DNA from: Nemertoderma westbladi
Taxonomy: Eukaryota; Animalia; Xenacoelomorpha
Assembly (NCBI GenBank): GCA_032718475.1
Contig: JAUCBJ010009163.1
Location: 62,001 to 126,000 of the forward strand
DNA length: 64,000 bases
Reading direction: 5' to 3'
The first letter of the stretch is position 1, and each line of letters starts with the position of its first letter. This document shows positions 2,631 to 25,484 of this stretch, in pieces. The notes beneath the pieces were generated by a model. That model made no database searches. It was not told where the DNA came from and worked only from the letters and a program-made list of their open reading frames with translations. Position numbers and translations under genes: made by a program.

Positions 2631-4979
2631 GTAGCAGAGGGAGAGGCGGGGGTGAATAGACCCAGCCGCAGTAGGGTTGATGTGTCGGCTAGAGAGGGGT
2701 ATAGTAGCGAAGTAAGAGATAGTGAAGTTAGATGTGGTGAGTGGGGGGGGGGGGGCTACAGGAGCCCCACAACAGCGAGTTAGTGGCGAAGGGGGGGGGG
2801 GGGCAGAGAGTGCCCCACAGGCATCAACGGATAATGCGCGGGCCGAGATCGGTAAACCGCAATACCCGGCGACGGAGAGTGATATGGGGATTGCGAGTAT
2901 CCCCAGCGGCGTGCAATCGAGCAGAGAGAGACAGGTTGACGTCGCGAGAGGGCGGACGAAGCGTCGAGCCCGATCAGAAGAGGGAAGAAGAACAGTGGAG
3001 TTTAACTGGGAGGTCGACGAGAGATCTCACGAGCGGGAATACTGCACTACAGAGAGAAGAAAGGAAGAGAGTAGAAGAAGTGTCGCCGCGAACGACAGGA
3101 GAGCGAGGACGGATAGCGAGCCGTCGGTAGTAGAGGTGGAGACGGAGAGTCAGCGGGGTCGAACTTCGGGAGATTGCCGTCGCCCCGGAGGAACGCGACC
3201 TGACGAGGCGTATTGCGCGCAGAGAGAGGGGTACGGGATGTACCGGCACGAGAGACGAGAGCAGTAGAGGGGGTCAAAGAGAAACTTCCCGACGGGATAT
3301 ACCTACCGATCGAGAATGCGGTGGCCGCGGGGAGGATTATTCGAGAAGGATAAACTTCGATCCCGAGCGACACATACAGACTGCAGGACATACTGTAGGC
3401 CTTACTGCACATACCATAGGCTATGCTGAGAGAGATAATATAGGCGATAGGATAGCGCGAACAACGGGATTAAACCCGGAAGTCGCGGAGTATATACCGG
3501 CAAGGAGGCCAGAAGTAGATAGGCCTATACCGGTACCAGCACAGCAGTATGACTACAGCATGCAAGGACATAACATATACCCAGGGGAGGGGGGATTATT
3601 GCGGATAGATGCATGGGCTCCAATATATTAACATCAACCCCAGTACCAAACATACCGGTGGGGGGGGGGGGGGACAGGGTGACATTCCCCCATCACAATA
3701 TCAACAATATACCCCAGTAGGAGTAAGAACATCGAACCCCTTGGACGAGAATAGATCATGCGACACAGAAATATGGAGGGGGCCGCTACCCCCTATGATA
3801 TATCCAAGTCAGAGGAAAGCGGCAAACAGGACGAACGGACCGCACCCAACGGGAGAACCTATGCAGCACCCATCGAACCCATTGGAAGCGCAAGCGGTGG
3901 GGATGGCCACGTTAATCGATGCACTAAAAACAAGGATCGAGTTACCACCCGTGGAACCATTCAAATTCGATGGGAGTAGGCCGGAAGAATACCTACAGTT
4001 TCGGCGCATGTATAGTAACGAAATATTAACAAAAAATTTGACGCAGGCGGAGTGCCTAAAGTATCTGCAAGTATATACAGGGGGCCCAGCATACGACATC
4101 GTGAGGCAATACCAGGGTATCGAGGGTGGCTTCACGACGGCATGGCGGGCGTTAGACAGGGAATACGGGCACCCGGCCAAGATCATCCGGCAGACCCTGA
4201 GAGGTATAACATCGGGTGGCCTACAGGATAACCCCGTTAGCATAAAGACATTCGCTAACAAAGTCGAGAAGGCGCTAATCGTGCTAAAGACATTGGATGC
4301 GCCATACGAACTCAACGCGTCCAACAACATCACTACGATAGCCCAGGCACTTCCGATGTGGCTGCGCAATAAGTGGAGGAAAATCGCTTTCTCCACTCGA
4401 GATAGGAAGGGTGCGGAACCGGGTTTAGAAGAGATGTGAAGCTTCTTAAACTATGAAGCTGAACTTATAACGGACCCAGTCTACAGCGAGGATAGCCTGG
4501 GAAAGGGATCAAAGACTGATTACCACAGGCCGAAACCAGAGCATAACGCGTCGAGCGCATTGCCAAAGCTCAGACAGTCACTGCCGTACGCAGCAACGCA
4601 GGGGACTACCAGTCCACAGGTAGCCGGGGGTAAGACCACATCATGGAGCGGACAGGGGAAAAATAACAACATGGACAAACATAACCCCAGTACACCCAGT
4701 AGGCCGAATCCAAACAATAAGAACAGTAAGGACTTTGGTACAAATGCAACTGCGATACGCAATGCACTGTATAAGGATGGCTACGATCCAAAGAGCAAAT
4801 GCCAGCTACATTCAAATGCGCTTCATCAGACCATGAACTGCAGGTACTGGCAGGCGCTACCCAGGGAAGATCAGGTAGAATACGCGGCGAGAAATGAGAT
4901 CTGCTCGCGATGTGTGATGAGTGGACACAGAGCTAGACAATGCAGAGAAACGCCAATTAAGATGAGGTTCTGGAGATGA
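2436..4979 (+). pseudogene. gag: BEL/Pao gag (disrupted)
   Basis: DUF1759-like core ELPPVEPFKFDG...LKYLQVYTGGPA in 3609-4439. After an in-frame TGA at 4437-4439 the frame continues FLNYEAELITDPVYS. Knuckles CQLHSNALHQTMNC and CSRCVMSGHRARQC. The N-terminal part has stops and frameshifts. Confidence 0.85.
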
Positions 4980-4989
4980 GAACCGGACG

Positions 4990-7900
4990 GTGCGGATAGC
5001 AGCGGTAGCACCGGGATGCGATTATGGGGCGACCATCGACCCCATCCAGGTGATAGAGTCGATAAATATTAACGCCAGGCGGCCAACCAACATCGAGGTC
5101 GAACAATACAGATTCCTGGACAGTATCGACTTCTCAATCCCAGAGGTGGACGTTAGGAAGGTATCCATCATAGTAGGAATGGACTGCCCAACGGCCCACG
5201 AGAGAATGCAAACGGTCTTCGGCGAAGACAGGCAATGTGACCCGGTGGCGATATTGACACCATTCGGGTGGACACTGAGTGGCCCAATCAAGAGTAAGAT
5301 ACCATTTAGGATGTCGGAGACATCAGGATGCATGTTCGCGGGAACTATGCGAGAGATGGAGGATGAGGGAGCAGAGGAGCAGCTCAGGAGACTGCTCAGG
5401 CAGGATTTTGAGGGATTAAAGGAGACCGGGGTCGGAACCTCGGTAGAAGACAAGCAGGCTTTACAAAGTGTAAAGGAATCGATGACATGCGATGAGGGGC
5501 GGTATACCATAGGGATGGTATGGAAGCTACCAAAGCTACCGTTACCCGACAACAAAGGGATGGTACTTACGAGGCTTCGCAAGTTAAAGCAGACGTTAAA
5601 ACGGAGCCCCGAGAAGAATGAGTACATCCACAAGACAATTAGAAAGTATGTCGAGAAAGGATGGGCCGTGGAGTTACCGGTCGACGAGCCAAACACGGAC
5701 AGGACCTATTACCTGCCACTCCACGTGGCTATAGACCCGAAGAAAGGTAAACTGCGGATGGTAGTTGACGCATCAGCCAAGACCAACGGGAAATGCCTAA
5801 ACGATTATCTGCTGGAGGGTCCCAACATCTACAACTCAGGGATCGAGGTCCTACTCAGATTCAGGAATGGCAAACACGCTTTCACCTGCGACATCGAAGG
5901 CATGTTCAACAAAGTCCGTGTAACGGGAGAGGATAGCGACAGCCAACGCTTCCTATGGTACGACGGCGATGAGGAACCGTCGACCATACCAATGTATAAG
6001 ATGATAGTACAGAATATGGGAGCCAAGTCGTCTTCGTTTACAACAACTATGGCAGTAAGAGATACGGTAGCAGGGAAGGAAGATAAGTTCAGCGCCAAAG
6101 CCGTCGATATGATTCGACGCGGCTTCTACGTAGACGACGGGATGGAGTCTGGAAATACGGTTAAGGAGCTACTGGACACAGGGCGCGAGGTTCGCGACAT
6201 CCTTAAAGGATCCGGCTTCAACCTAACCAAATTCCAATCCAGTTCGAAGGAATTTATCGAGGCGATAAAAGACGAGAGACCAGGATCGACCATGGATAAT
6301 CACACAACAGCCAAGGGGCAGGACATGGCGAACAAGAGGATAGAGTCTCAACAGAAGGCACTGGGAATCGTGTGGAACAGAGAGACAGACGAGCTAAAAT
6401 ACCAATTGAGTCAGGAGGGAGCAGGTATTCACACAAAGAGGGGCTATGTGTCATATATAGCGAGGATATACGATCCCCTAGGCCTAGCATCCCCATTACT
6501 AGTCACGGGGAAACAGATACTCAAGAGAGTATACAAATTAAAGGACGAGTGGGACACAGAGGTCCCAGAAGAGATTAGTAAGCAGTGGAACAAGTGGACA
6601 GAGAGTCTAAAGCAGATGGGAACATACAGCATGCGGCGTGTATATTTCCCGGATGGGGACATGACGAATCTGGATCTACATATGTTCTCCGATGGGTCAT
6701 TAGAGGCATATGGAGCGGCACTCTACTTAGTACAACGAGAGGGGGCTCACAAGCCCAGACTCGCATTCAGTAAAGCGAAGTCGACGCCACCAGACTCAGC
6801 ATCAGTTCCGAAACTCGAGTTGACAGCTGCGAGATTAGGAGTTAGGGCCACAGCCTACTTAGTGGACACTATTCCCAACATAGTGGAAGCACACTACTGG
6901 ACGGATTCCATGGTAGTGCTCGGTTGGCTACACAACGAAAGGACGAGATACCCTATATTCGTCGCGAATAGAGTGGACGAAATAAGAGCGACCACAGAAC
7001 TGGAAAGGTGGCACTACTGCCCAACGGATGAGAACCCAGCAGACTTGTTATCGAGGGGCGTGGTACGCCACACTTTCTTGAAGAAGGAAGTATTGTGGCA
7101 ACACGGGCCACAGTTTCTGAGCGATAGGGAGGCCTGGCCGCCGATGAGAAAGGTGGACCCGGGCTCAGGAGAAGTAGTGTCAGAAGGAGAAGAGGGAAAT
7201 TCAGAGGGAGAGGAGATATACTCCCAGATGGTGAGGGAGATTAGGGGCGTGCAACCAAAACCAGGAGAACTGTGCGATAACCCGACGGATAAACTCCTTA
7301 GCTACAGTTCTAGTTGGTACAAGACCAAGAAGTTAGTGGCGTACTGGAGAGCCTTCGGGAATTTCCTCAGGGGAGTTGGCAAAGACGTGAAGATTAGAAT
7401 GACAATAGATCTGGAAGGAGCGGCCAAAGAAGTCATTCGCTACGAGCAGAGGAAGAACTATGGCGACGACGTGGAACGCGTCGGTAAACAACGGCATCTC
7501 CGGCGGGACAGCGATCTGATCACGCTGTCACCACAACTTAATGACAACGGGATCCTAGTAATGAACTCTAGGGTGGGATACAACAACAGTATCGTCGTAC
7601 CACCGAAGCCCATCATCATCCCCACAGGATCGCCGATAGTCCACCAGATTATCTGGGACTCTCACAAATCGTTATTGCACGGGGGCACCAACCGAACCCT
7701 CACGGAGGACCTTTTGGGTCAAACAGTTGAGGAAGAAGGTAAAGGCGGTAGTGGGGCAGTGCCAGACCTGCCGACGAGCGAAGAAGGAATGGGCCATACA
7801 GGAAATGGCGCCACTACTGGCCAGTAGAGTAAGACAGCACGACCCGCCATTTACGCATTGCGGTGTGGATATGTTCGGGCCGATAAAGATTACGAGGCCG

Positions 7901-8648
7901 CAAAGACCGCAAAGTTTGGACGATCGCAGTAATGTATTCTGACAGCGGGACCAACTTTGTGGGGGCGGAGAACGAGATGGCAGAGGCCTTGGATATCCCG
8001 GAAGGGGAGGAAGTCAGGGCGGCCATGAGAAGGCGACAAGTAAAGTGGGAGAGGAGGACGCCGTATGCTCCGCATACCCTAGGATGCGTCGAGAGATTAG
8101 TGGGTAGTTCGAAGCGTCTGATGACGAAGTTGATGAACACCCACATGGTTACAGAGGACGTACTAAGGACAGTACTGGCAAAGTGTGAGGGTATCATTAA
8201 TAGCAGACCGCTATATCCAGAGAATGATGACCCTGAGTCATTAGACGTGCTGACGCCCAGTCACTTTCTAATGGAAAGGCCAGCGACAATCGACATGCGG
8301 GGTGTAGACCCAGATGACATACACTCCCGCCAGAGTTGGAAAGTCGCTAAGGCGATAAGTGCCGAGTACTGGAGGAGGTGGGTCGAGGAATATCTGCCCA
8401 CACTACACAGAAGAAGTAAGTGGAGGAACACGAACAGAGAGCTAAAGGGGGGTGATCTGGTGATTGTCACGGATGATACCATAATCAACAACCAATGGCG
8501 GTTGGCGAGAGTTGTGGGCACTTACTCCGATGAGGACAGAAGAGTCCGATCGGTAGAAGTGCGAATAGGTGGAAAGATAGGTGCGAAAGACAGAAAGACC
8601 TACAGGAGGGCTGTAGGGAAATGCTGTCTACTAGAGGGGGCACCTTGA
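4990..8648 (+). pseudogene. pol: BEL/Pao pol (protease remnant, RT, RNase H, integrase), frameshifted with deletions
   Basis: RT YYLPLH..KLRMVVDASAK, FYVDDG; RNase H MFSDGS, PKLEL, WTDS, NPAD; integrase HKSLLH, CQTC, GVDMFGP, SDSGTNF, CVERLV; C-terminal DUF5641-like region. Frame breaks at ~7707 and ~7915. Confidence 0.95.
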
Positions 8649-8676
8649 ACTAGTGTGGATTTTAGTGGAGTTTAGT

Positions 8677-8738
8677 CGTCCAAGTTTTGGACTGAGGGGG
8701 GTGGGCATGAGGGCGAGACGCCCTTCCCACACAATAAA
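8677..8738 (+). other. Post-pol hairpins, PPT-like G tract and AATAAA
   Basis: GTCCAA-GTT-TTGGAC hairpin, GAGGGGGGTGGGCA-TG, hairpin GTGGG..AGGGCG-AGA-CGCCCT-TCCCAC, then AATAAA and an A-rich run. Confidence 0.55.
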
Positions 8739-8790
8739 GATAAAATAAAAAAAAAATAATAAGAAGAGAAAGTCATAGAATAGTACATAA

Positions 8791-9190
8791 TAGGTACCGT
8801 CAGTAGGCAGAAGTTAGTAAGAGGGTACGTAGTACCATCAGTAGGCAGAAGTTAGTTAGTAAGAGGGTATGTAGTACCGTCAGTAGGCAGAAGTTTGAGT
8901 TTAGTAAGAGGGTACGTAGTACCGTTAGTTAGTTGGAGAGAGTTAGAGGTTAGTAAGAGGGTATGTAGTACCGTTAGTTAGTTAATGGAGTTAGAGGTTA
9001 GTAAGAGGGTACGTAGTACCATTAGTTAGTTAATGGAGTTAGAGGTTAGTAAGAGGGTACGTAGTACCATTAGTTAGTTAGTGGAGTAAGAGTTAGTAAG
9101 AGGGTACGCAGTACCGATTAGTTAGTTAGTTAGAGAGAGTTAGAAGTTAGTAAGAGGGTACGTAGTACCGGCTAGTAAGAGTAAGAGGTA
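8791..9190 (+). repeat. ~45-55-bp tandem repeat, 8 copies, between pol and the extra ORF
   Basis: Constant core AGTAAGAGGGTAYGYAGTACC (mini-palindrome GGTAC-GTA-GTACC) separated by related (AGTT)n-rich linkers. Confidence 0.9.
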
Positions 9191-9670
9191 GAGGGATATA
9201 TATATATAGTATAGACATTAGTTAATAGTTAGTAGCGAGAGGGGGGCATATGAGTACAGCTGGATAAATCGTGTAGGCCACGCGACGCATACTGTTGTAC
9301 TGCACAAGCCCACAGAGTAGGCCAGAATGTGGATTATGAAATAGAATAATCCATAGGCAATAGTAAGTAGCAGCACGATAGTAGGATTGAATTAGATTAA
9401 AATATTAAAATAGGATAGGGCTAAGAAATTGACAAATTATGGTAACAGTAGCAAGAAAATTCTGGAACATAATAAAAGTAACTGACAAATTTACGATTTA
9501 GGTACAATTTGGTAGCTACAGAAATCAAGCAGTATAAATAGGCTAATTAACTTAGTAATTCAGAGGGAGATAGGCCATCGAACTGAAATAAACCACCTTA
9601 ACCTATCACTCACCCTATTGCGCCTTGGTAAGGCACCACCCAACGGGTGAGCGATCGGGCAAAGTTCGAG

Positions 9671-11804
9671 ATGGCAAGCAAACTTGTGCGAAAGAGAAAG
9701 GCGGAGCTAGGAGGAAAGGAGATACTGGTGGATTTCACCAAGAGGCATCCGGAAGAGAGAACGAGGGGATACTACAAACGGTTAGATAGGGGTCACGCAG
9801 CGCGAGCGCTACAGGACCATTTCAGGGAGGTGCACGAACAGCGGCTGGTTCGGGACCTAGGGGACGCCGTCGCTGGACAACGCGATCTTCGAGCATTTCC
9901 ACTACGTGATAAAAGGAGACGAAGCGAAGTTCGGGATTCCGAAGTACGCAAGGGATCCACCGAGGAAGGATTGGAAGAGGTTCGTAGAGTCCGTCAGCAG
10001 AGAAGGGTATATGGTCCTGGACGATGAGGGGACCGTGGAAACCGAGGAGGGTTCGAGGAGAGGATCGGCGGCGTCAGCCAGAACCATACTCCTACATTTG
10101 GCCGCGCCAAATGGGGATATATTCCTATTCGATCTAGGAACGTATGGAAAGAAGGATGGGCCGAAGTTAAACCGGTTGCCGAAGGCGGTGCAAGCACTAG
10201 TGAGAAAGAAGTCGACGACAAAAGTGGGATCGGCGATTCGCGATGACGCGGAGAGAATCATCGGTCCGGACACCCCCAACCTTCTGGATATGCAGACGGT
10301 CTACATGGCTATGACAGCGCCGGACGGATTGGGACTAGTAGAGAACACAGGACATTGCGGGGCAGTGGCGATGGGCCAGTTAATGGGGCTCGTGTGTCAC
10401 AAACCGATGGACTGGGGCAAGTTCAGAGAGGAGTACAGAGCAGACTTGGCGAACTCGCCGAAGTGGGGAGCGAGGCCAGGGAGACAAGAGGTGTATCAAT
10501 TCCGGAGAGGAGCTATAAAGGTATATCAGAAGCGATATATCCTACAGGAGGACTGGATAATGATAGGTTTGCTTAACCTATTCATGACCGTGGTTATCGA
10601 GAGGGAACCAACGGCATTCCTATTATCGGGATCACCCCTAAGCTACAGAAGAGCCTTTAAAGGAAGGGACATAGTGGGTCCACCGGGATACCGGGACTGG
10701 AGCCACTCCCAGAGGAGGACGAGGACGACGACGAGTTCGGAGAGATGCCGCCCATCGAGAGGATCGGCCACTCGGACACAGACTGGGTTGGCGGGGGGGG
10801 TGGTGACAGCCAGTGGGGCGAGGGCTTTCTGGGATAGACCCAGCAAGCGGGCCTGGGTGCACGAGGACCCGGTAATGGATTTCGCGGGGAGCACCATCAG
10901 GTTGGGCGAGCAACCGGGGTTGGCACCACGGGTAGTATTCGGGGAGACGATGCCCGAGAGGGGCGAGGAGATCAACGTAGATAGGGACGCTAACGTCCGG
11001 AAGTTCGCTTACCAGCGACTCCACAGACCGCGGAGATCGCTTGGGACGAAAGACGACGTGGGGCGGGATCCATTGGTGGTCGGCTGTGACTACTGTGGGA
11101 GACAGACCCATCAGGAAAGGAGCTGTTTGTACCGGTTCCAGAAAGGGACTAGTTGTCTCTATTGCCGCGAGTCGAGCCACAGGATGGGGGCGTGTCCACG
11201 GTTGCATAACCGATGTTCGAAGTGTAACTTTCGGGGACATTACGGATGCCAGTGCGACTGGATGGACGACAAAGAGAAGTTTAGGATCTTCGAGGAATGG
11301 GCCGACGTCGGGGCGATGACTCGGCAACGTATGAAGGCCCAGGAGTTCCGGTGGGGCTTCTTTAACATCAATCAGGAGGCTCACATGGAGATTATCAAAC
11401 GGAGGCTTCCGTTTACCTACCAGGAAGTGGCGACGGTGGCATCATATGCCGGAGTGATAAATACGCAGAGGTATTTGGATAGGTGGACGCCACAGAGTAG
11501 AGGAGAGTTTAGGGATTTCTTAGCGGAGCATGTGCCGCGGGCAATGAAGATGATCCTATGGGACGCCAACAGGGGGAGACAACAGGGCCACTCGGAGGGG
11601 CCACCCGCGAAGCGATACCGGGAGCTAATAACACCGGCACCCAAGGAGTCGACGACCGGGATCAGTAAGGAGGTGGCGGCGAGAGTCAGAAGCCAGAAAG
11701 CAGACAAGACCATAGGAGCGGCAGTGACCACAAAACGACCCAGGGAGGGGGACAACAAAGGGAAAGATTTGAGGTGGTTCCCAAGGGCTGGTGGAACGAA
11801 CTAG
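9671..11804 (+). CDS. DEDDy-type (WRN/EXD/RNase D-like) 3'-5' exonuclease with three CCHC zinc knuckles; retroelement accessory ORF with one apparent frameshift at ~9860
   Basis: ExoI MVLDDEG (D-x-E at 10020-10028), LLHLAAPNGDIFLFDL, LPKAVQALV..KVGSAIRDD (ExoII), NLLDMQ, QKRYILQED (ExoIII-like). Knuckles CDYCGRQTHQERSC, CLYCRESSHRMGAC and CSKCNFRGHYGCQC at 11085-11255. Removing one G from the run at 9860-9863 joins ATG 9671 to the 632-aa ORF. Confidence 0.8.
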
Positions 11805-11988: not shown

Positions 11989-11999
11989 GGACCGGGGGA
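11989..11999 (+). other. Polypurine-tract-like site
   Basis: GGACCGGGGGA immediately before TGAC, the usual arrangement at the start of a BEL/Pao 3' LTR. Confidence 0.55.
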
Positions 12000-13087
12000 T
12001 GACTGACTATGACGAATGAGACATTAGACGACTTCACACTTCCTGAGTGCGACGGCACAGGAGAGGGGGGTGAGACTCGTCAGAGATGAGTAAGTTAGCC
12101 AAAGAGGGGTCGAGCAATGGAGCGATATAGCGGAGTGCGGAGAGAGTGCGAGTGCAATTCAAGTGTGGGGGGGGGGGGGGGAGGAACAAGAGGCTGAGTG
12201 AGGGACAGGGAAGTCCGAAAGTTAGAGCGGAAGTGAGGAGAGGTAGCGAGAGTCAGAATGAGAATAGAGTGGAGTTAGAGTGGCGAAAGTGTTGGGGAAA
12301 CAAAAGTCATGTGAGAGGAGCGCATGATCAGCCCAACACGGGACGCCAGGTAAACAGGGTAGCGATATCATACCCATAGGGGGCGGTCTGGAAAACCGGC
12401 TCCGAAAAAATAGTTCCACCCCACACTCGATACTAGGTCGAGATCCAGCAGAATTGTAGCGCACTAAAGGGGGATGCTATCTTCTTACCGGGAAGATAGC
12501 ATGGGGGGGAGTGTTAGCGTATTCAATTCCGCTAGCCAGCCCCATAAAGTGAGCTTTAAGCAATATTGGGAACACGAGGTTGATATCCAATATCAACCTC
12601 GTATCACCCCAATAAAGTGGGGACAAGAAAACCCCAGAGGACATACGCACAACAGGGGTCAGGGGTTACACCCCTGAGAGAGAGAGGGAATAACAGGAGC
12701 AACGGGAAACACTCCAGGGAAGGTAAAGGGGCGACAATTAGGATATTAGCCAATAGGGGGGAAGCATCGACTGGGTAGAGCAATATGGCCAACTGTGCAA
12801 TATATTACAGGTCCATGCATTATTTCATTCACTTGTAGTAAGTCAGCTAGTTAGGACAGTAGCGGAACTCTAGTTACCGTCTCTGTCTCCATCTACTGCC
12901 ATACAATATATCATTTACCGGTACATTATACACCATTCACTTCAACCGTGCTGTAACCTATCATTGATTATACTATATGCATCGATCAACCAACAATCGA
13001 ACTCTCTTTATATCTTTCACACACAGCGGGGACGCGTAAGCTAGAAACCAAAACCGGATAAACCGGGATCCTCCGTAGATCCCGTCA
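12000..13087 (+). repeat. Putative 3' LTR (TGAC...GTCA), not matching the 5' LTR
   Basis: 4-bp terminal inverted repeat TGAC/GTCA after a PPT-like tract. G-rich first part, CCAAT at ~12750, TATA-like at ~12801, Inr-like TCATTC at ~12825, then a pyrimidine-rich end. Single copy only. Confidence 0.5.
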
Positions 13088-14036: not shown

Positions 14037-16004
14037 CTATTTACTAATATTGGGTGGAGATTTGTAGTCTCCCGTCTCGTTTCTAGTCTCCTCAAGGAGC
14101 ACGAGACGTTGTACAGGCCTATCTACGGTACGTCCGTCGATAGTCCGTACAGTAACTGTCCTCACTACACCAGATGTAGGGTGCGTGGTCAAAATGACTC
14201 CAGTCAGCCAAAACCGTCTTCTCAGATTAGCTTCAGCCAATAAGACATGGTCACCACGCCTTAAACACCGGGTATTTAGATACCAGGAAGTTCTGGTCGA
14301 AATAGAGGGCAAATAATATTTCTGCCATATTTCCCAGAATTTATTTGCAAGCAATTGAGTAATTTTCCAAGCCTTGTTGCCGTATCCGTCACTATCAACG
14401 GGTACCGAAATGGGCAACAATGTCGTCGGCGCCTGCATAAGCAGGTGCGCTGGTGTCAAGGCAAACCGTACGTCGTTATTGTCTGGGATCAAAGCGATCG
14501 GTCTGGTATTTAAGATTGCTTCGATTTCTATTAGTAACGTCGTCAGTTGGTCGTCTGTCAAGATGTGTTGCGTCGGTACGACTTTAGCCATAGCTGTCTT
14601 TATTGAGCCAATCAGCCTTTCCCAAACGCCGCCTCTCCACGGACTGTCTGGAGTATTGAAAAACCAAACAATACGGTGAGGACGTAGTTCCTCGGAAATC
14701 TGGTTTTGGTCCAATTTTCTCAAAGCTCTGGTTATCTCGTTCCGTGCACCCACAAAGTTTGTCCCTTGGTCGCAGTATATGGATTTGACCAATCCACGTC
14801 TAGCGATAAATCGCCGTAAGGCTAGGATAAAGGCATTGGTGGACAAGTCTGTCACTCGCTCTATATGGACAGCTCTGCTGGCCATGCAAGTGAAGATCAA
14901 TCCCCAACGTTTTACCTGTACCCTTCGGCGTTTCGCGATTATGGGTCCAAAACAGTCTATCCCTGTTTCAGTGAAAGGGGGTCTAAATGCCTGTAATCTT
15001 GCTAGTGGTAGTTCACTCATTTCTTGGTGTCCTATCCTCGCGTGCACCTTCTTACAAATAATACAGTTCTGTGTTACCGAACTCAGTGCTTTACTAGGTC
15101 TAATCAGTACAAACCTCGAGCGTAAGTGTGATAGACAGTGGTGTCTACCTACGTGTTTGAGTTGTACATGTGCGTCCAGTATCATAGCGCGCTGTAATTC
15201 ATGGTGTTGCGGTATGATGATAGGATACCTAAAGTCAAGTGCAAAGTCGATGTTTTGGAGTCTGGACTTGTGACAAAGTAAGCCCCGGTAAATAATCGGA
15301 CTCCAACTCAAAATCGGTGAAGACTTAATCTGTTTACCTTGTTTGATCGCTGTGAACTCTCGTGCGAAATATCGCAATTGATAATGTCTAATGATATCAA
15401 CTTCACAGTGTTCAATTTCCTTTAAGGTAAGTCTTCTAGGAAAGTCGCGTTTGCCTCTGGCATATTGTCTCAATCGTTTGAGCCATGCTAACTTGCGGCA
15501 CGCGTCAGTCCATGATCTAGTTAGGTTCACTATCCTGTCAACGTAAGTGTTAGTGACGTCATCGGGTAAGGTGTAGTCGTAGTGTGGATACTTGTCTGGA
15601 CTTGGTAGGCCCACGGGCCTTCCGGTAGGTTTGTCTGAGTCCCCAAGTACGTCAATCTCTACGGTCTTACCTTTGCCGTCCGCACCTAATATGTCGACTG
15701 GCAGTAATGGTTTCAACTCTACAGTGTCAGTGTGTTCCTGTGAGCCTGTAAGCTTCCTAACCTTAGTCACTACTTTACCTGTAGGTAAGTCAAGTACCTT
15801 CTTCGAGCGGAGTGTAATCCCTGTGGCCACACCTCTGTCGTCCAAAGAAGTCAAATTCGGTAAGTCTCTAAAAGTCCGCTCCAATGGGTCTTCTAATGGA
15901 GTGTCTAGTAGACAGTCTGGTGAAGCGTCTGGTGAACAGTCTGGTGAGACGTCTGGTGAGACATAGCGCGGAACATCCGGCGAATGTCCTGTCGTCGGTC
16001 CCAA
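14037..16004 (-). pseudogene. pol: pol C-terminal part: linker, integrase and DUF5641-like domain
   Basis: AHVQLKH...CIIC zinc finger; GIDCFGP, KRWGLIFTCMASRAVH, CDQGTNFVGA, GGVWERLI (DDE), IEAILNTRP, FWEIWQKYYL. Confidence 0.95.
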
Positions 16005-16300
16005 AGTCTGTCTAGCGTAACTTCTGTCAGAAAGTCTGGTTCAAAGTCTGGTGGACAGTCGGTCGAGATGTCTGGTGAAAAGTCTGGTGAGACGTCCGGT
16101 AGACATTCTGTCGAGAGTTCCATCAAACAATCTGGCGAACAATCCGGAGAACAATCTGGTGTCTCTTCTGGTGAATAATCTGGCGAGTAATCTGGTGAAC
16201 AATCCGGCGAAACGTCTGGTGAAATCTCCCGCGGAACATCCGGCGAAGGATTCGTACAAGCGTCTGGTCGAGTGTCTGCCGAGACGTCTGGCGTAATGTC
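15900..16300 (-). repeat. 12-bp coding minisatellite (SPD[C/V/Y/A] repeats) between RNase H and integrase
   Basis: Repeated TCTGGTGA/TCTGGCGA units on the + strand; protein SPDVSPDCSPDYSPDY. Confidence 0.85.
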
Positions 16301-18279
16301 AGGTCTGGCGTCCAGGTCATCAGATTTCGTCCGTCCTTTTTTCCTCTTGACCTTGGCATTGGCTTTCGCTTTAGACTTGACAACCTTGTCGAGTTTTATC
16401 TCGGCGCCCTCTGGTATGGTGTTGGTTGTCGCGTCGAATAACGGTGGCCATTCGTCTGATGGTCGCTGTAGGAAATCGGGTCCTCTAAACCAAAAGGATT
16501 TATTGTCCGGTTTACAAAAGTCGAGTGGTTGCATCCCCCGTGATGCGATGTCAGCTGGGTTCAGCTTCCCTGGACAGTGACGCCAATCTTGTTTGAGCGA
16601 CCGGTCTAGTATTTCAGCCCGTCTGTTGGCTACGAAAGTCTTGAACTCAAATGCTTCGTTGTTTATGTACCAAAGTACCAACGTCGCATCCGTCCAATAT
16701 GTGACCTTCAAGTTAGCCTCCAGCTCGCGTTGAACTAGACTGACAATATCGGTGGATATCGTCCCGGCTTGCAGCTCCCCACGAGGTACAGTCATATACT
16801 TCAATGGCATTGTTCTAGCCCTTGAAGTAACGAGAGATACATCGTAGCTGTCCGATGTCACTTGTCGTCTAAGGTATAAGGTAACCCCCAATCCATCCTT
16901 GCTAGCGTCACTAAAGCTGTGAAGCTCTAAATCAGCAGGAAAGGTGGTTTGCAAAGGAAAGTATACCCTTGGTATGGTATAGTCTTGTAGGAACGTCAGT
17001 TGGGCTTCCCAGTCCCTCCATCGCTCAGCTAACTTTTCTGGGATGGGATCGTCCCATTCCAGTCCGGCTTGCCAAATGCTGCGGAGTATGATCCTGGCAT
17101 GTAGGATCACTGGACTAATGAAACACAATGGGTCATACAATCGACTCATGGTCGATAAGCAAGTTCTCTTAGTGAGAGGTCTAGTCCGATCGTTGGACCT
17201 TACACGTACCCTAAAATTGTCGGTGTTAGGGTCCCAACTAAGTCCTAATACTTTGGTCGTCGGCAGAGGTTCTAGGTCTAAGTCCAAGTCACCTCCGCTA
17301 CGATCCGTCGGGTCAAATGAGTTCACCAGTTCGGGTTCGTTGGAAGCGAACTTTGTCAGGTGAAATCCGCCCTCAGCGAGACAATCCTGGAGTTGGTGTG
17401 CTACGGTTGTAGCGCGCTCCAAGGTGTCACAACTCTTGAGGCCGTCATCCACGTAGAAGTCTCGTTCCACGGTCCGAACTACTTCTGGGTCAAATTGGTC
17501 TCGTCTGTCTAATGCTGTCTGCTTCAAGGCGTACATGGTGCAGTTGGGGCTGTCCCTGGCTCCAAATACTCTTACCTGCATTTGGTAAGTTTCTGGCGGA
17601 AGTTCTAAGTTTCCGTCTGGATACCAAAGAAACCTCAAGCTGTCCCTGTCCCGCTCCAAAGCCTTAACCTGGTGAAACATGGCCTCTACGTCACAGGTGA
17701 AAGCCACTTTGCGTTGTCTAAAACGCATTAGGACTCCCATGAGGTAATTGTTCATATTCGGCCCGTCCATCAGTTCGCTGTTCATAGACATCCCTTGGTA
17801 AAGCGCGGCGCAGTCGTTGACTACACGCACCTTGCCAGGTTTGTCCGGGTGTCGAACAAAATGATGTGGCAGGTAATATGTCTGGTCTGTGGTTACCTCG
17901 GGATTTAACATCCTAATGGCGTATTCCTTTTGGAGATACGTCTGAAGTTGTGCATTGTATTGCATATGGGCCGTCTCGTCTCGCAACAAAATTTGAGTCG
18001 CCTCAAAGCAAGCGGGTAATTGTTAACGAGTTTAGGTTGTCCATTGCGCCACAACATACCAACCTCATAGTGGCCATTCGCGGTCTGGCGAATGGTATCT
18101 CTCATAATATTTAATGACCGTTTTTCCTGTTCTGACATAGCGGTCTCGTAACTACCGGGTTCTGCTGAGTCCTGTTCCAACCATTGAATGGTCTGTTCAG
18201 TCAGCAGTCGGTCTGGCGCTGCTTGCACTGCGCCATGGTCATCGTCCACGTCTTCGTCCGCTGCGGTGGCTAGTGTCAA
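15905..18279 (-). pseudogene. pol: pol RT and RNase H (frameshift at ~17990)
   Basis: GHYEVGMLW..NNYPLALRRL; YYLPHH..KVRVVNDCAA; LMRFR..CDVEAMFHQV; FYVDDG; YDPLCF; SFSDAS; PRGEL; WTDA; LNPADIASRG. Confidence 0.95.
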
Positions 18280-18303
18280 TGCGTCTGGTAGGCTCGCAAG
18301 CCT

Positions 18304-19950
18304 TCAGGTATCACTAGTTGGCGTCGAATCGTCGTGCGGCGGTTTGACAACTTCTGGATCTATCGGTAGGCTCGCAAGCCTTCCAAGATCAACGACCGGT
18401 GTCGAAGTCTGGTGGGTGGGGTCAATGACCTTTGGATTTTTCGGTAGGCTCGCAAGCCTTCCAAAATCCTCGTTCATCGAGTCATCCACAGCAACAACCC
18501 TTTGGTCTTCGGTAGTCAATACAACCTGGTTTACTGCAAGTAGTTGTAAGTCAGAGGTCCGTGTGGTCGTGTCCAGATCAGTTACGTCAGTATCGGTGGC
18601 GTCTGCGTTAGCGACGCAAGTCTGTCGTAGTGCTGTCCGTACAATTGGACCACGGGAGTGTGAAGGAGAGTTATCTATCGTAGTAGTCAATAAACTACAT
18701 GTACTCAAAACATCGTCCTCCTGGTCACTTACCTCTAGTGAACGTATTGGTGCTCTAGTATACCAACCTATGGGAGTTCTACATGCGTAGGGGTTGCCCG
18801 CTGTAATAACAGATGGGCGTGTCTCCCATACCTGATGTAAGTTAAACTGGTCTGTCCCAATTAACATCGCAATGGAACGATAATTAACAGGACATTCCGG
18901 TATTCCAAGGTGTCGGAAATACTTACGATCTTCCGGTGATTGCTCTGGCACAGGGCCGACCAAGTTACTAAAGTCCTTCGTAGCTGCAAAGGTTAAATTT
19001 CTTACCGGAAGTAATGAGCGCTCCTCCTTGCTGTGTTCCGCTTTGGAAAGAAGAGTGTCTAAGGTTAGTTTTACTCTTGTCACAGGGATCGCTCTCTTAC
19101 CATGCATGCTGCTTACAGTATACTGAGCAGTCTTACCTTTACTGATTTCCGTAACCACGTCGGCTACTTGTTCGTCGACATAACTGTGTGATGACGCAGA
19201 GTCTAAGATAGCGTATATACGCTTGCTCCCTCGGGTTCCGGTAATCTTTATAGGAATCACGCTAAACCCTTTCAACTGGTTCTGTGTGAAGAGCGTTACT
19301 GATGGTTGTTCCTCACCTGCATGCACATAGAAAGTGTCGTCTTCCTCCTCGTCCTCGTCCGATGATCCTGACTGATCCATACAGTCCGTGTAAAACGTAC
19401 GGATCTCGCGTGGCGCACGCTCCTTATATAGTGCGTCGCATCTAGCCGCTTTATCTGGATGCTCTTGTCGAAAGCGTCTGGTCGGAGTATGACTAGTAGT
19501 GTGAAGTAACGCGTCATGGTTACGTCCACACAGAGGACATGTATCGTCGCTCGGGCAATCCTTCCGGACGTGTCCTGGCTTCGTACATCTCCAGCAGGAA
19601 TCTAACGATCGAATTTGGAGTCTCCTTTCTTCGATCCCTAACTCCTTAAAAGCGCGACATCCACGAAGTTTATGTCCGCTATGGTTTCTGCCGTTCCGCT
19701 CGCAGTATGAGCATCCCACAAAGTCCGCCGGCAACTGTTGTTGTGGCTGCGTGGTGCCGATAGGCGTCAGAACTTTAGAAGTCTCAGTAGGGGTGGCGTA
19801 GGTAACGGCTTTCGCGTTCGTCGGAAGTGGTTTAGTCCGATTCGGCGCAGAAATAGCTATCCCTTCTGCCCCGATATGGTGATCAGTATAGTTCGATCGA
19901 GTCTCGATCACGGCCTCCCGCGAAATAAGTTGATAGACGTCGGTGAGTTT
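18304..19950 (-). pseudogene. Gag C-terminus (three zinc knuckles) and aspartic protease
   Basis: CSYC...H...C, CWRCTKPGHVRKDC and CPLCGRNHDALLH (BEL-type third knuckle); protease IYAILDSASSHSY; MLIGTD; ACRTPIGW. Confidence 0.9.
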
Positions 19951-22905
19951 TTATAACCCTCCGGCCTCTTCACGCTGGTACTCGATGCGTCGCCATTCTC
20001 GTCGGAGTCGATGATGAAGTCGACCGATTATCCTGATGAGAACCGTCGGTGCATTAGCGTACTCGAGTTGTCCAATGGACCGTAAAGTCCCTATAGCATT
20101 CTTGATTTCATCCGCGAGTCGTAGAAGATCGATCGGTTTCGAAATGCTGCCTCCTCTACAGAGGTCTTCGATAATGGATTTAGCCATGGCGACGTTACCT
20201 CCGGAAATCGAATATAAACGGTCGTACGCCAACTCAAAGGCATCGGGAACACCAATGAAGGTTTCCACTAATCGTTTCGGCTCACCAGACAGGACTTGGA
20301 GCAAGTAATTAAACTTCTCCGTCGAGGTGAAAGCACACTTAGCGATCTGGGACTCTACGTAGTCTACCAGTGTGCGCCAGTGTTTCGCGTTGCCAGAGAA
20401 CTTCGGCGGTTGCTGTGCCGGTAATCCGTGTCTAGCCGCGAATTTCGCAATCTTGCTAACCAAATCCAACTGTCCGCATCCCTGTTCGGTGGCGTCGTCC
20501 AGTCGTTCCCTTCCGCGTGTTGTTCGGCGGTAAGAATTATTAATGGGATCTTCTTCTCGATGTGTCGGAGTCTGTCTAGTCTCCTGTTCTCGCCTTGGTA
20601 GTCGATGTTGTCTAGGTTGTTCTAACTCCACGCTGGTTCGTGATCGATCCGACGGTTGCGTTTCGAGTCGTTCTTCGAGTTGAGCTATTCTGTCCGTCAT
20701 CTCGGTGAACTGTTTGGCGCTGATCGTTTCCGCTGGTTTCAACGTGGGTTTCTGTTGGGGTGTTTCTCGTGGAGGATTGTCGATATAGGGGTTCGTCGAT
20801 CGTTCCTCCCGTTTGTAATCTTCCGCCGCTCCAGTACGGAATATTTCCCGTTCCGTCGACTCCGAGTCACTAGATGAGTCGCTGTCGTCCGGGTAAGGTG
20901 GTTGGCGGGTTCGTGTCCGGCGTATTACTCTCGATTTCGTCCGTTGTGGTCCGGAATCTACGGCTCTCCGTTGTTCGGTAGGCTCGCAAGCCTTCCACGA
21001 AGTCGTAGGTCTCGCTATACGTTGTCCGATCCCGTGAGTACTACCCACATCCATCCTCCTCCGTAGTTCGGTAGGCTCGCAAGCCTTCCACGAAGTCGTA
21101 GGTTGCGTCGAACATTGTGTCAACGGTCGAGTGAAATAGTCGGGTTTCGTAGTCGGTCTGTAAATAACTGGATTTGCACAGCACGTCACAGGTTTAACTT
21201 GTAATGGTTTACTCACCTGTTTAATGGTCATAAATGCAGGTTCCTCTCTTCCTACAAGTAGACTACGACTTACTGTAGGTGGACTAGTTATGTTACCTGC
21301 TAAAATTGGCGATGAAGTCGCCCTAGGTTGCGGTATTTCCGTCACAACAAACCTGTTACCTTGCGTCGAACGCACAGGCGTTATTTCCTTAGGTTTCGTA
21401 ACAAAGACCGGTTTTATCGGAGTCGTGGGTTTGAGCATAGGAATAACTTGGGGAAAACGTTTACAGTAATCCTCGACGAACTCCTCTCCTCGATCTATCG
21501 CTCCCACGCTTCCTTCCTCGATCCGCTTCTGTATTCCGCGATATCGAGCTTCCATACGATCCAGGGCAGACAAGTCGTGTCCAGTTCGCGATCTTATAGA
21601 TCTATCTCTCGCATCGAGTTCGAGGTCCGCTTGCGCGTTCGCTGTCTCGCGCGATCTACGATTTAATTCGAACTGTAGTTGCATCTCCCTTTTGCGTCGA
21701 TCTGCGTCCTGTTGTTGTGCCGCTAATTCCGCTTCCTGTATAGCTAATCGAGCATTTATTTGCCGCGCCTTCAACTTGGCACGAGCGTCGGATGCTGCTT
21801 TCTTCCGTGCTAACTCGTCAGCTGCCGCCTGTCGTGCTAACACGTCAGCTGCCGCCTGTCGTGCTAACTCGTCGGCTGCCGCTTCTTGCGCTAAGTCCTC
21901 CTCCAGTCTGCGCATCTCCGAAGCTTCGAATTCGGCTTGCGCCTTGAGTTGTGCAATTCTTGCCTCGTCCTCTCTATGTTGTTTCTCTCCTTCGATGGCG
22001 ATCTGTGCCATCTGGTGTCGCGCTTCTTCCTCGGCGACTTGTTGTCGGCGTGCAACCTCCTGTTGTTGTCGAGTAATTCCAGACGCTGTTCTACTAACGT
22101 CGCCAACGTTGCCAACGTCGCTCCGTACGCTAACGAACGATCTATCCAGTGGTGGATGTTGGTAGGCTCGCGAGCCTTCCGTAGTGAGAACTTCCGTCGT
22201 CCCTCGCGGTTCGACTTCCGGTTCGTCGATCGGTACGCCGCATCTACGAAGAAAATTGGTCAGCGTTTCCAACCTTCCGTCCAGGCAGTAGAGTTCTTCT
22301 TCCTCTTCGTGTTGTAACAACGCGTCCGAAACTGACTCACCTAGCAGTTGGTCGAACTGCTCCTGTTGAGCCAATCTTATCACCGACTTAAACTGGATAA
22401 GGCTTTCTCTCGCACTTACCAATTTATCTACTATCTTTACCTGAGTAAAGTTGTCGCCACGCAACTCTGCAAGTTCGTGCAAACCTTTAAGTTTATCTAC
22501 GGAGGCATGTACCCTACTTTCTATCCTTACCTGTAAGGTGTAGAACTCGTATCTCGACATCGGGGCGGTTAACTCGCGTAAAACGCGAAAACCTTCTCCG
22601 AGGTTCCGAGTAATCTGGGCCATGTGTCCTCCTATACTTCTAATAACGTTCTCCTGGCTTCCAGTCGAACTTACCATGTCCGGTTCCCGCGATCTAGTCT
22701 GCGGGATGGTAAGGAAATCTTCAATTCTGCCGTCGCCACGCGTTGCGGTTTCCGGTATTTCCGTTCAGGGTACCGGCGACGCAAGCGGTGTGACATCGGT
22801 GGAATCTCGGGTTCTCCTTCTCGGTTCGTCTACTGTCGATCTGTCCGGGTCGCACGAGTCATAGTCGGTAGGTGGGTATCTCGTCGAATGGGGTGTGTCA
22901 CTCAT
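19951..22905 (-). pseudogene. gag: BEL/Pao gag with coiled-coil region (nonsense codon at 22765-22767, frameshift at ~19950)
   Basis: ATG at 22905 is in frame with the 908-aa ORF except for one TGA. DUF1759-like LPAQQPPKFSGNAKHW...EKFNYLLQVLSGEP; QAAADELAR coiled-coil repeats. Confidence 0.85.
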
Positions 22906-23906: not shown

Positions 23907-25484
23907 GTCCAGTAGTATACCGCTTACCAGATCCTAGTAACGATGTATCTTACTATGAGACTCTAGTAATGTATACGGGCTTGTACAGTATCTGACAACA
24001 AATCCCAGTCCAGGATATCTAAACAAACAGATACAATACACAAACGACTACTGGCGAGGAACAGAGCCTTGTATCTATTCTATGTACGTGAGCGGGTCTA
24101 ATGCCTACGTACTAGACAGAAGGATACCTGTCCTCTAACCGGTGAGGCAGATGTACAGTTACAGTAACAGACCAAACTCACGGGAAAACAATCCCCGCGC
24201 AGCGAATCCTAACTATCACTGACAGTCCTAAATACAGTAACTTGCCGCGGTGTGATTTATATGGTTTATATACGAGCTGATGGGTTAACAGACCTAGCGT
24301 AACAACACTGACAGTCCTAAATCAGTCGAAAAGGGGTCGTACCTAAATGTAACAATAACTGATCCCCCTGTACGAAATCAGTCTAAAAGGTCAAGCCTAA
24401 ATGTAACAATAACTGCTGGACAACACAACAGATTAATAACGAAAGTGAAATACTCCTTATTGCCGCAACTAAATCAGATCCTAATTTTACAAATACAGAC
24501 AATTTCCACCTAAAGTAATGTATAGTGCGCTATAGCTAGTAGAACTTTAAGGGCAATATGTTTTAGGGCGTGTGTGTGTGGGTGTGTTACAAATAAAACA
24601 ATTTCGTGTAATTCCTTTACTAGGTTTTAGTGATTTTCTGACTAAGTGATACCGTGCGCTAGCTACTAAAATAAACTAGTCGCGTTTTGTAGAACTTTAT
24701 ACTCACGAATGACGTCAAAGCTCTCTCCTTCCTATCCACAACCCAATGGGCAACCACAGTGTTAGTAACTACACCCGTGATCGGCACTAATACCAGATTC
24801 TGGTTGTAAGATAAGAATAGGGGTTAATCGCTACCGTACGTTAGCTGATCTGGTATACTAATTTAATTCTAGACAGATCAGATTCTAGACAGATTCTAGA
24901 CAGATCAGTACGTGGCAAGGCGCGGTAGGATATTAATAAACCTCCCTAGGCCAAGCAGTGTGCCGGTAGCAGAAATACTCCTTGCCTGATCAAATAGCTA
25001 ACTCCAGACGGGGGGGGGGGGGGGGGGTACTAATGTACGTTCTACAAAGCGAACCGGTACCAAACAGTCATTACTACGAATCACTAAATTATGGAACATA
25101 TGCTGTCCGTACCTAATATGTACTCGCGTACTGACGAATGGCAATAGTTCACACCTGTAGGAAGTACAGGTTAACCCAGGGATTCGTAGGACTTGACAAA
25201 GGGGGGGGGGGGGGGGGTTGTCTGGATATAATTATTTGATCCTAAATTTGCGGCGTCCAGTACGGTGTCACGCTTACTCTGATCTATAGGTCTTACGGCG
25301 GGCAAGGGCATCGAACAAAGTCTTACCTTCTCACAAAGCGGGCGCTGCATAGCAAGTGGAGTATTTCGAAGGGGCAAAGGGGGTGCGCGGTCGATCCAAT
25401 GTGGGCGCTAGCGTGTTGTGGACATCCCTTCCCTGCGTTGCTTACGGCCTAACGATCTAGGCTGCCATCTCCCTGATGTTCGGC

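Follow-up and report, generated by a model that had tools for sequence, protein, structure and literature searches.

The third open reading frame (ORF3) described here is a real and integral third gene of a BEL/Pao retrotransposon lineage and is under selection; it stands in the env position and encodes a predicted DEDDy-like 3′-5′ exonuclease domain followed by three CCHC zinc knuckles. The copy analysed lies in a 64,000-nucleotide stretch of the Nemertoderma westbladi assembly (the window, along which all coordinates count), for which a preliminary description had been made from the sequence alone. The conclusion draws on the linkage of ORF3 to BEL/Pao pol genes in relatives, on family profiles together with a predicted structure, and on signs of purifying selection.

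The window element and its third gene

The element is laid out as follows, and residue numbers of the window ORF3 count along the frame starting at 9861.

3609..4979, + strand: gag, broken (DUF1759, E 1.5e-11; in-frame stop at 4437-4439; one CCHC knuckle at 4902)
4966..8648, + strand: BEL/Pao pol, reverse transcriptase (RT)-RNase H-integrase (Peptidase_A17, RVT_1 (weak), Integrase_H2C2, DUF5641; tblastn with intact relatives)
8649..9670, + strand: spacer of ~1 kb, with a tandem array of ~48-bp units at 8794-9194
9671..9860, + strand: candidate ORF3 start, in a frame other than the main ORF (ATG at 9671)
9861..11804, + strand: ORF3 main frame, 647 codons stop-to-stop
9882..10622, + strand: predicted DEDDy-like 3′-5′ exonuclease domain (profile, AlphaFold2 model, VIA)
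10629..11060, + strand: linker of low confidence, probably disordered (pLDDT < 50 for most of residues 257-400)
11085..11255, + strand: three CX2CX4HX4C zinc knuckles, starting at 11085, 11154 and 11214
11256..11585, + strand: conserved helical domain after the knuckles (FE-x-AD-x-G...WGFF), without a family name (alignment, AlphaFold2 model)
11992..12001, + strand: polypurine tract (PPT)-like run CCGGGGGA, then TG; candidate, unconfirmed 3′ LTR start (read from the sequence)

Gag and Pol carry the Pao-specific domains DUF1759, Peptidase_A17 (E 6.8e-41) and DUF5641 (E 1e-23), which place the element in BEL/Pao. A protease domain, present in the intact relatives L013 and L046, was not detected by Pfam in the window copy. 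This copy is dead: gag holds a stop, the pol frame is broken near 4970, 7710 and 7900, and pol ends at 8648 in TGA-ACT, after which only 8 codons are open. ORF3 is broken as well, between the 9671 and 9861 frames, because the candidate ATG (9671) is out of frame with the main ORF; a profile of the N-terminal region of 31 relatives gave the 9671-9860 frame 0.8 bits only, and homology does not link it to ORF3. ORF3 has a single break over 2.1 kb and gag-pol about four over 5 kb, which amounts to no real difference in preservation, and the earlier impression that ORF3 is the better preserved was not supported.

ORF3 had also been placed between pol and a PPT/LTR-like end. The shared strand and the PPT-like run are there, and the PPT-TG junction resembles those of four relatives (L074, L076, L033, L023), but no LTR pair of the ORF3-bearing element was found within the window. 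A weak 5′-3′ alignment (score 56 against a shuffled maximum of 38) was rejected as an LTR pair, as it sits over G-runs. Thousands of variant contig pieces from organism A (three studies, one organism) cover both pol and ORF3, so both are multicopy there; among the longest pieces listed, none bridges the two.

Elsewhere in the window, a second BEL/Pao element (14037-22764, - strand) lies tail to tail with the first; it carries 12-bp tandem repeats inside pol, and neither an exonuclease ORF3 nor an LTR pair was detected in it. Inverted segments at 1932-2068 and 24136-24266, 75% similar, lie upstream of both BEL elements. The stretch 935-2335 is very deeply covered in three sequencing runs and may be the LTR of another family, and about 410-500 there is a stretch that looks tRNA-like by eye, possibly SINE-derived, at which ARAGORN made no call. 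From 26201 to 64000 the window is a satellite array, in which a 416-bp unit is present about 90 times.

A predicted exonuclease followed by zinc knuckles

The same-strand ORF with the exonuclease motif series read earlier from the letters is present, and its catalytic positions could be located: ExoI D54/E56 at 10020-10028, ExoII D129 at 10245-10247 and ExoIII Y226/E230 at 10536-10550. The DEDDy label applies in part, in that the D-x-E of ExoI, the D of ExoII and the Y of ExoIII fit while the acidic residue of ExoIII is E rather than D; since ExoIII thus reads Y-x3-E in place of the strict Y-x3-D, we class the window protein as DEDDy-like only. All three perfect CX2CX4HX4C knuckles of the preliminary description are found, and the six frames of 1-26300 hold only two others, both in gag genes.

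Searched singly, the window ORF3 gave no Pfam match, nothing significant among PDB sequences and a fold of pLDDT 33.6; two word-index protein searches were without a match and one returned three unnamed proteins. The exonuclease assignment therefore rests on family profiles and predicted structure. With the window ORF3 as query, phmmer matched 85 proteins at E up to 0.001, every one via the knuckle region, of which 44 have at least 470 residues. An N-terminal domain profile built from 16 of these 44, with the window query left out, scored window residues 39-253 at 86.7 bits (the reversed query gave no match) and matched 19 of the 28 other long relatives at E < 1e-5, so that the combination of exonuclease and knuckles is a family trait. 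Against the PDB, the full family profile matched EXD2 (5.7e-15), the Trypanosoma brucei RNase D, TbRND (3.2e-10, largely through the knuckles), WRN (1.9e-6) and Egalitarian (2.4e-5), with Lin28, nucleocapsid and TbRND as its knuckle matches. The exonuclease-only profile put EXD2 (E 5.4e-14) far ahead of WRN (0.06-0.28), with one spurious DARPin in between.

In an AlphaFold2 model built from 39 sequences, confidence is high in two domains but not in the linker and tail. The model predicts a WRN/EXD2/Nibbler-type exonuclease fold for the N-terminal domain, and the DnaQ/RNase H-like fold asked for by the preliminary description is the one obtained. VIA aligned the model to mouse WRN exonuclease over 174 residues (Z 14.5, rmsd 2.9 Å), tied with an apicoplast polymerase (Z 14.5), followed by Nibbler (14.1), RNase D (13.2) and EXD1 (12.5), with EXD1, Egalitarian and TbRND all within Z 12-12.5. 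DnaQ-type exonucleases, or polymerases that contain such a domain, make up all of the first 28 VIA rows (Z of at least 10.3), and RICE1 is among the structural neighbours. Foldseek placed Egalitarian, whose exonuclease-like domain is catalytically inactive, at the top of its list; these entries include complexes with RNA localisation signals. Giant-virus exonucleases lead in a viral library (Pandoravirus, E 6.5e-8). In the Atlas, a cluster named 3′-5′ exonuclease (PF01612 on 34% of members) was reached at 0.94, below three unnamed clusters, and the knuckle part gave leads under 0.9 only. The proposed WRN-exo/EXD/Mut-7/RNase D membership thus stands for the fold, while the closest solved sequence is EXD2 and not Mut-7 or EXD1.

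Association with BEL/Pao pol genes

The family knuckle motif H-x4-C-x2-LH-x2-C-x2-C-x2-RGH occurs in 70 of 89 sequences. As a DNA pattern in metagenome contigs it marked at least 120 loci (about 300 estimated), with flanks for 80; because many share few assembly prefixes, these represent many elements from few samples. Of the 33 listed loci with at least 5 kb of upstream DNA, 31 have a BEL integrase there in the same orientation and none has one in the opposite orientation; all 28 of these loci with an exonuclease match have it. When 2.5 kb of upstream DNA was asked for, 40 of 48 listed loci had an integrase. One locus without integrase within 10 kb is a decayed orphan ORF3 (L012), and in the sequence of L008/L032/L072 no integrase was found within 1.9 kb upstream. 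L071, which with L012 makes up the two misses among the 33, appears to be a chance motif match in a gene-dense contig.

Many contigs hold one intact gag-pol frame of 2,000-2,400 codons and then ORF3, and the five checked by Pfam are BEL/Pao. In L023, a 95% identical LTR pair with primer-binding-site (PBS)- and PPT-like sites encloses gag-pol and ORF3, and PPT- and PBS-like sites lie 3′ of ORF3 in several other relatives. The env position of ORF3 and its constant linkage to BEL pol are thereby borne out, and the outcome that would have spoken against the preliminary description, a separate non-BEL element or a single-copy host gene, did not occur, the linkage recurring in dozens of elements.

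Among these relatives, five (L005, L015, L037, L043, L051) have ORF3 frames of 1,280-1,590 codons with long N-terminal extensions that gave no Pfam match. Seven contigs of ~9-11 kb (L013, L033, L060, L062, L065, L068, L069) have exact end repeats, as would be expected of collapsed LTRs or circular forms. The knuckle motif matched 12 times in GTDB genomes: six lack the exonuclease and were taken as chance, and six are family members (L123, L124, L127, L128, L130, L132) on short contigs of two bacterial MAGs, two of them with BEL integrase, and are likely eukaryotic contamination. IMG/VR held no relative of ORF3 and no match to the knuckle motif.

Divergence, selection and origin

For 23 elements, RT and exonuclease trees agree with a Spearman coefficient of 0.83 and 12 of 20 splits in common (quick trees). 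The window sits on a long branch in both, of 2.95 in the exonuclease and 1.35 in the RT tree; divergence is faster in the exonuclease domain than in RT, a pattern that host conflict could also explain. The proposed check for dN/dS below 1 came out positive: exonuclease dN/dS ranged from 0.035 to 0.59, with a median of about 0.17, in the 16 computable of 18 close pairs, which were chosen by hand, overlap and have dS near saturation. Among organism A copies, 37 differences are listed at 10230-10600; 26 of them are synonymous, where 29% would be expected, and none is a stop or an indel.

RT of the neighbouring BEL element without ORF3 is 37% identical to that of the window element, against 29-35% for ORF3-bearing relatives, this neighbour being the only ORF3-less outgroup in the comparison. 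As this neighbour is as close in RT as the ORF3-bearing relatives, ORF3 is dispensable for BEL elements generally, and either loss or transfer between lineages has taken place. The same values count against a single origin of ORF3.

Catalytic residues across the family

Residues were counted in 80 complete exonuclease domains, drawn from 94 aligned domains (87 at 90% identity). Four carboxylates (D-E-D-[D/E]) are kept in 43, the strict DEDDy set in 33, and D-E-D with E at ExoIII in 6, the window included; the Y-x3-E form of ExoIII is shared by the window with P0004, P0006, P0010 and P0061. Because E at ExoIII is common to six domains, we regard it as a lineage variant and not simply decay; judged by this residue, the window ORF3 may be slow or dead as a nuclease. 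A subgroup without integrase in its short upstream DNA (L008, L032, L072, L016) has N-x-E at ExoI and H-x3-N at ExoIII, and one relative (P0001) combines a duplicated knuckle triad and post-knuckle domain with a degenerate exonuclease. Eleven elements lack the ExoI carboxylates (the sequence of one is incomplete at that place) and group as a single clade, the dead clade, in the RT tree as in the exonuclease tree (SH-aLRT 99 and 100); exonuclease dN/dS within it is 0.04-0.32.

Candidate stop-codon readthrough in relatives

At 46 pol ends, set by hand and from lineages that are not independent, 200 or more open codons follow in frame after 11 of 15 TGA-C stops against 2 of 31 others, the groups having been defined after the data were seen; the two long open frames outside TGA-C both follow TGA-GGG. 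The TGA-C contexts include CGG and CAA-TTA, which are named as readthrough motifs in PMC3542737 (in part). In 13 elements an invariant TCGG stands ~20 nt past the pol stop. Six of these give a gap-free alignment, from which a stem-bulge-stem can be drawn that starts 9 nt past the stop; 97% of its cells are paired and 9 of its 13 pairs show changes on both sides, a level that none of 500 shuffles reached. These figures are favoured by the structure's having been drawn from the same 6 sequences on which it was scored. Bulged stem-loops with TCGG past the pol TGA are seen in L007 (1234-1293), L034, L037, L065, L066, L068 and others. CCTCGG may have a second role, since it is also found close to the pol stop of some elements in which no open frame follows (L038, L042, L051, L053, L063). 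Most of the dead clade runs on in frame from a TGA-C pol stop with the covarying stem-loop behind it. L029 and L076, whose catalytic residues are intact, have TGA-C and an open frame with other hairpins, and three catalytically dead elements (L038, L060, L063) end pol in TAA.

Relatives thus show the features of type II readthrough, namely UGA with a CGG/CUA-like context, an in-frame extension and a 3′ stem-loop about 8 nt downstream, and judged by these sequence features the ORF3 of the dead clade is likely made as a Gag-Pol extension through programmed stop-codon readthrough. SIRE1 uses such readthrough between pol and env. Splicing could instead join pol and ORF3: TGAC resembles a branch site, and ORF3 lies in another frame in 3 of 16 candidates (L002, L037, L062). 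The window copy has none of the readthrough features, and because of its TGA-ACT stop and 8 open codons its ORF3 would need its own (spliced or subgenomic) message.

Discussion

Our leading reading, held tentatively and a little short of an even call, is that the ORF3 product binds RNA and acts in cis as a nuclease whose substrates are RNA of the element itself or its RNA-DNA intermediates. The knuckles would grip single-stranded RNA and pass its 3′ end to a two-metal site, as TbRND does; the target would lie in or close to the particle and would be the ends of genomic RNA, or primer or hybrid RNA. In the dead clade, the fold would be retained after the loss of catalysis as an RNA-binding adaptor like Egalitarian or EXD1, delivered on Gag-Pol by stop-codon readthrough. 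We favour a role in cis because the closest enzyme, EXD2, digests RNA-DNA hybrids (PMC13425236, in part), because a non-catalytic role persists under selection in the dead clade, and because readthrough would tie the ORF3 protein to Gag-Pol. Against it, readthrough may be only an expression route, with the protein then released, and only 43 of 80 domains keep the four carboxylates.

We consider it rather unlikely that ORF3 works in trans against silencing, degrading, over-trimming or sequestering piRNA/siRNA precursors and so weakening host small-RNA defence, with dead versions as decoys for EXD1, Nibbler or Mut-7 pathways. The structural neighbours Nibbler, EXD1 and RICE1 argue for it, as do fast divergence with loss of catalysis and high apparent multiplicity in organism A; dN/dS, however, is low, and the tested pairs give no sign of positive selection. 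Mature piRNAs, moreover, are 2′-O-methylated and PIWI-bound, which blocks such exonucleases. Overexpression of TbRND, which has the same architecture, depleted guide RNAs (PMC7797062, in part), yet by sequence ORF3 is closest to EXD2, which is no small-RNA nuclease, and an in-frame Gag-Pol fusion suggests a particle-linked role; together with the dead clade, the likely fusion suggests at least as much a role on the element's own RNA. A DNA role as integrase partner, in RT proofreading or in trimming cDNA ends before integration, seems improbable: WRN exonuclease and the apicoplast polymerase tie at the top of the fold search, and readthrough would append ORF3 to integrase, but knuckle arrays of the CCHC type usually bind single-stranded RNA (Lin28, nucleocapsid and TbRND were matched) and a selected dead clade cannot proofread. 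That ORF3 is passive cargo, a separate element or a host gene adjoining pol, we regard as very improbable. No LTR pair was found in the window, no listed organism A contig bridges pol and ORF3, and L012 and the L008 group are without integrase nearby; order and strand, however, are fixed in 31 of the 33 listed loci, LTRs enclose ORF3 in L023, the trees agree and selection is purifying, and this reading is largely refuted for the family.

The nearest mobile parallel, named in the preliminary description and confirmed in PMC5408684, is the DEDDy ORF3 of the bdelloid rotifer LTR retrotransposons Juno and Vesta and of Athena/Terminon elements, the activity of which was not measured. As in BEL ORF3, an exonuclease ORF occupies the env position and the carboxylate set is altered (DEED in rotifers, DED-E in the window). 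Juno and Vesta, however, are gypsy-like, no CCHC knuckle array is described in their ORF3, and intragenomic ORF3 variation in rotifers is mostly neutral (env and GDSL ORFs; PMC5408684), whereas BEL ORF3 is clearly selected. The cellular TbRND (PDB 7c42/7c45), matched by profile and fold searches, likewise has a DEDD exonuclease followed by C-terminal CCHC fingers, which raise RNA binding and cleavage; it trims guide RNAs and has four fingers close behind the exonuclease (PMC7797062, in part), in contrast to the three knuckles past a long linker, the extra helical domain and the mobile setting of BEL ORF3. Its exonuclease matches the full profile weakly (15.8 bits), and no match to the exonuclease-only profile was listed, so convergence is likely. 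EXD2, WRN exonuclease and Nibbler/Mut-7 share the fold and ExoI-III layout but are single-copy host genes without knuckles. Egalitarian and EXD1, the latter catalytically inactive (PMC5408684), model the dead clade in keeping the fold as an RNA-binding module, although they are host proteins without the knuckle triad. Env-bearing BEL/Pao elements (roo; mosquito BEL with a chuviral glycoprotein) also have a third ORF between pol and the 3′ LTR (PMC8742986; PMC13524379, in part), whereas BEL ORF3 matches no env family or fold. The context of the relatives' pol stops matches type II readthrough (UGA-CGG with a stem-loop; PMC3542737, in part).

The ICTV Belpaoviridae profile gives third genes as env-like only (PMC8742986), and the word exonuclease is absent from the main text of a BEL/Pao survey (PMC3118150) and of PMC13524379. 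As far as its accessible text goes, PMC6338049 cites only the rotifer case of an exonuclease ORF, and the accessible parts of PMC7998251 and PMC4029161 hold nothing further on one in BEL/Pao. In the open-licence literature we found no report of an exonuclease ORF3 in BEL/Pao, nor of readthrough into a nuclease-fold protein; Repbase and supplements, outside this scope, may hold an annotation. Outside BEL/Pao, exonuclease and knuckles are already combined in the cellular TbRND. Enzymatic ORF3s of LTR retrotransposons are known; this architecture and expression route were not found in print for BEL/Pao.

A bolder account, which we put forward as doubtful, is that an old and widespread BEL/Pao lineage swapped env for a small-RNA-destroying nuclease, an encoded counter-silencing enzyme of animal LTR retrotransposons, and that in one branch this enzyme became a pseudo-nuclease that clamps RNA and is carried on Gag-Pol via readthrough, possibly binding the bulged stem-loop that would control its own synthesis.

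Extra ORFs of BEL/Pao elements have been described as env-like, and ORF3 here is a predicted enzymatic accessory gene, conserved, selected and co-diverging with RT in a large number of divergent elements. Further additions from the family are a post-knuckle domain that has no name and a candidate signal for readthrough in which base changes compensate each other. The role of a DEDDy ORF3, left open by the work on rotifers, becomes testable by comparison in this family, because it has dozens of intact members, with active as well as dead variants occurring naturally and with two routes of expression.
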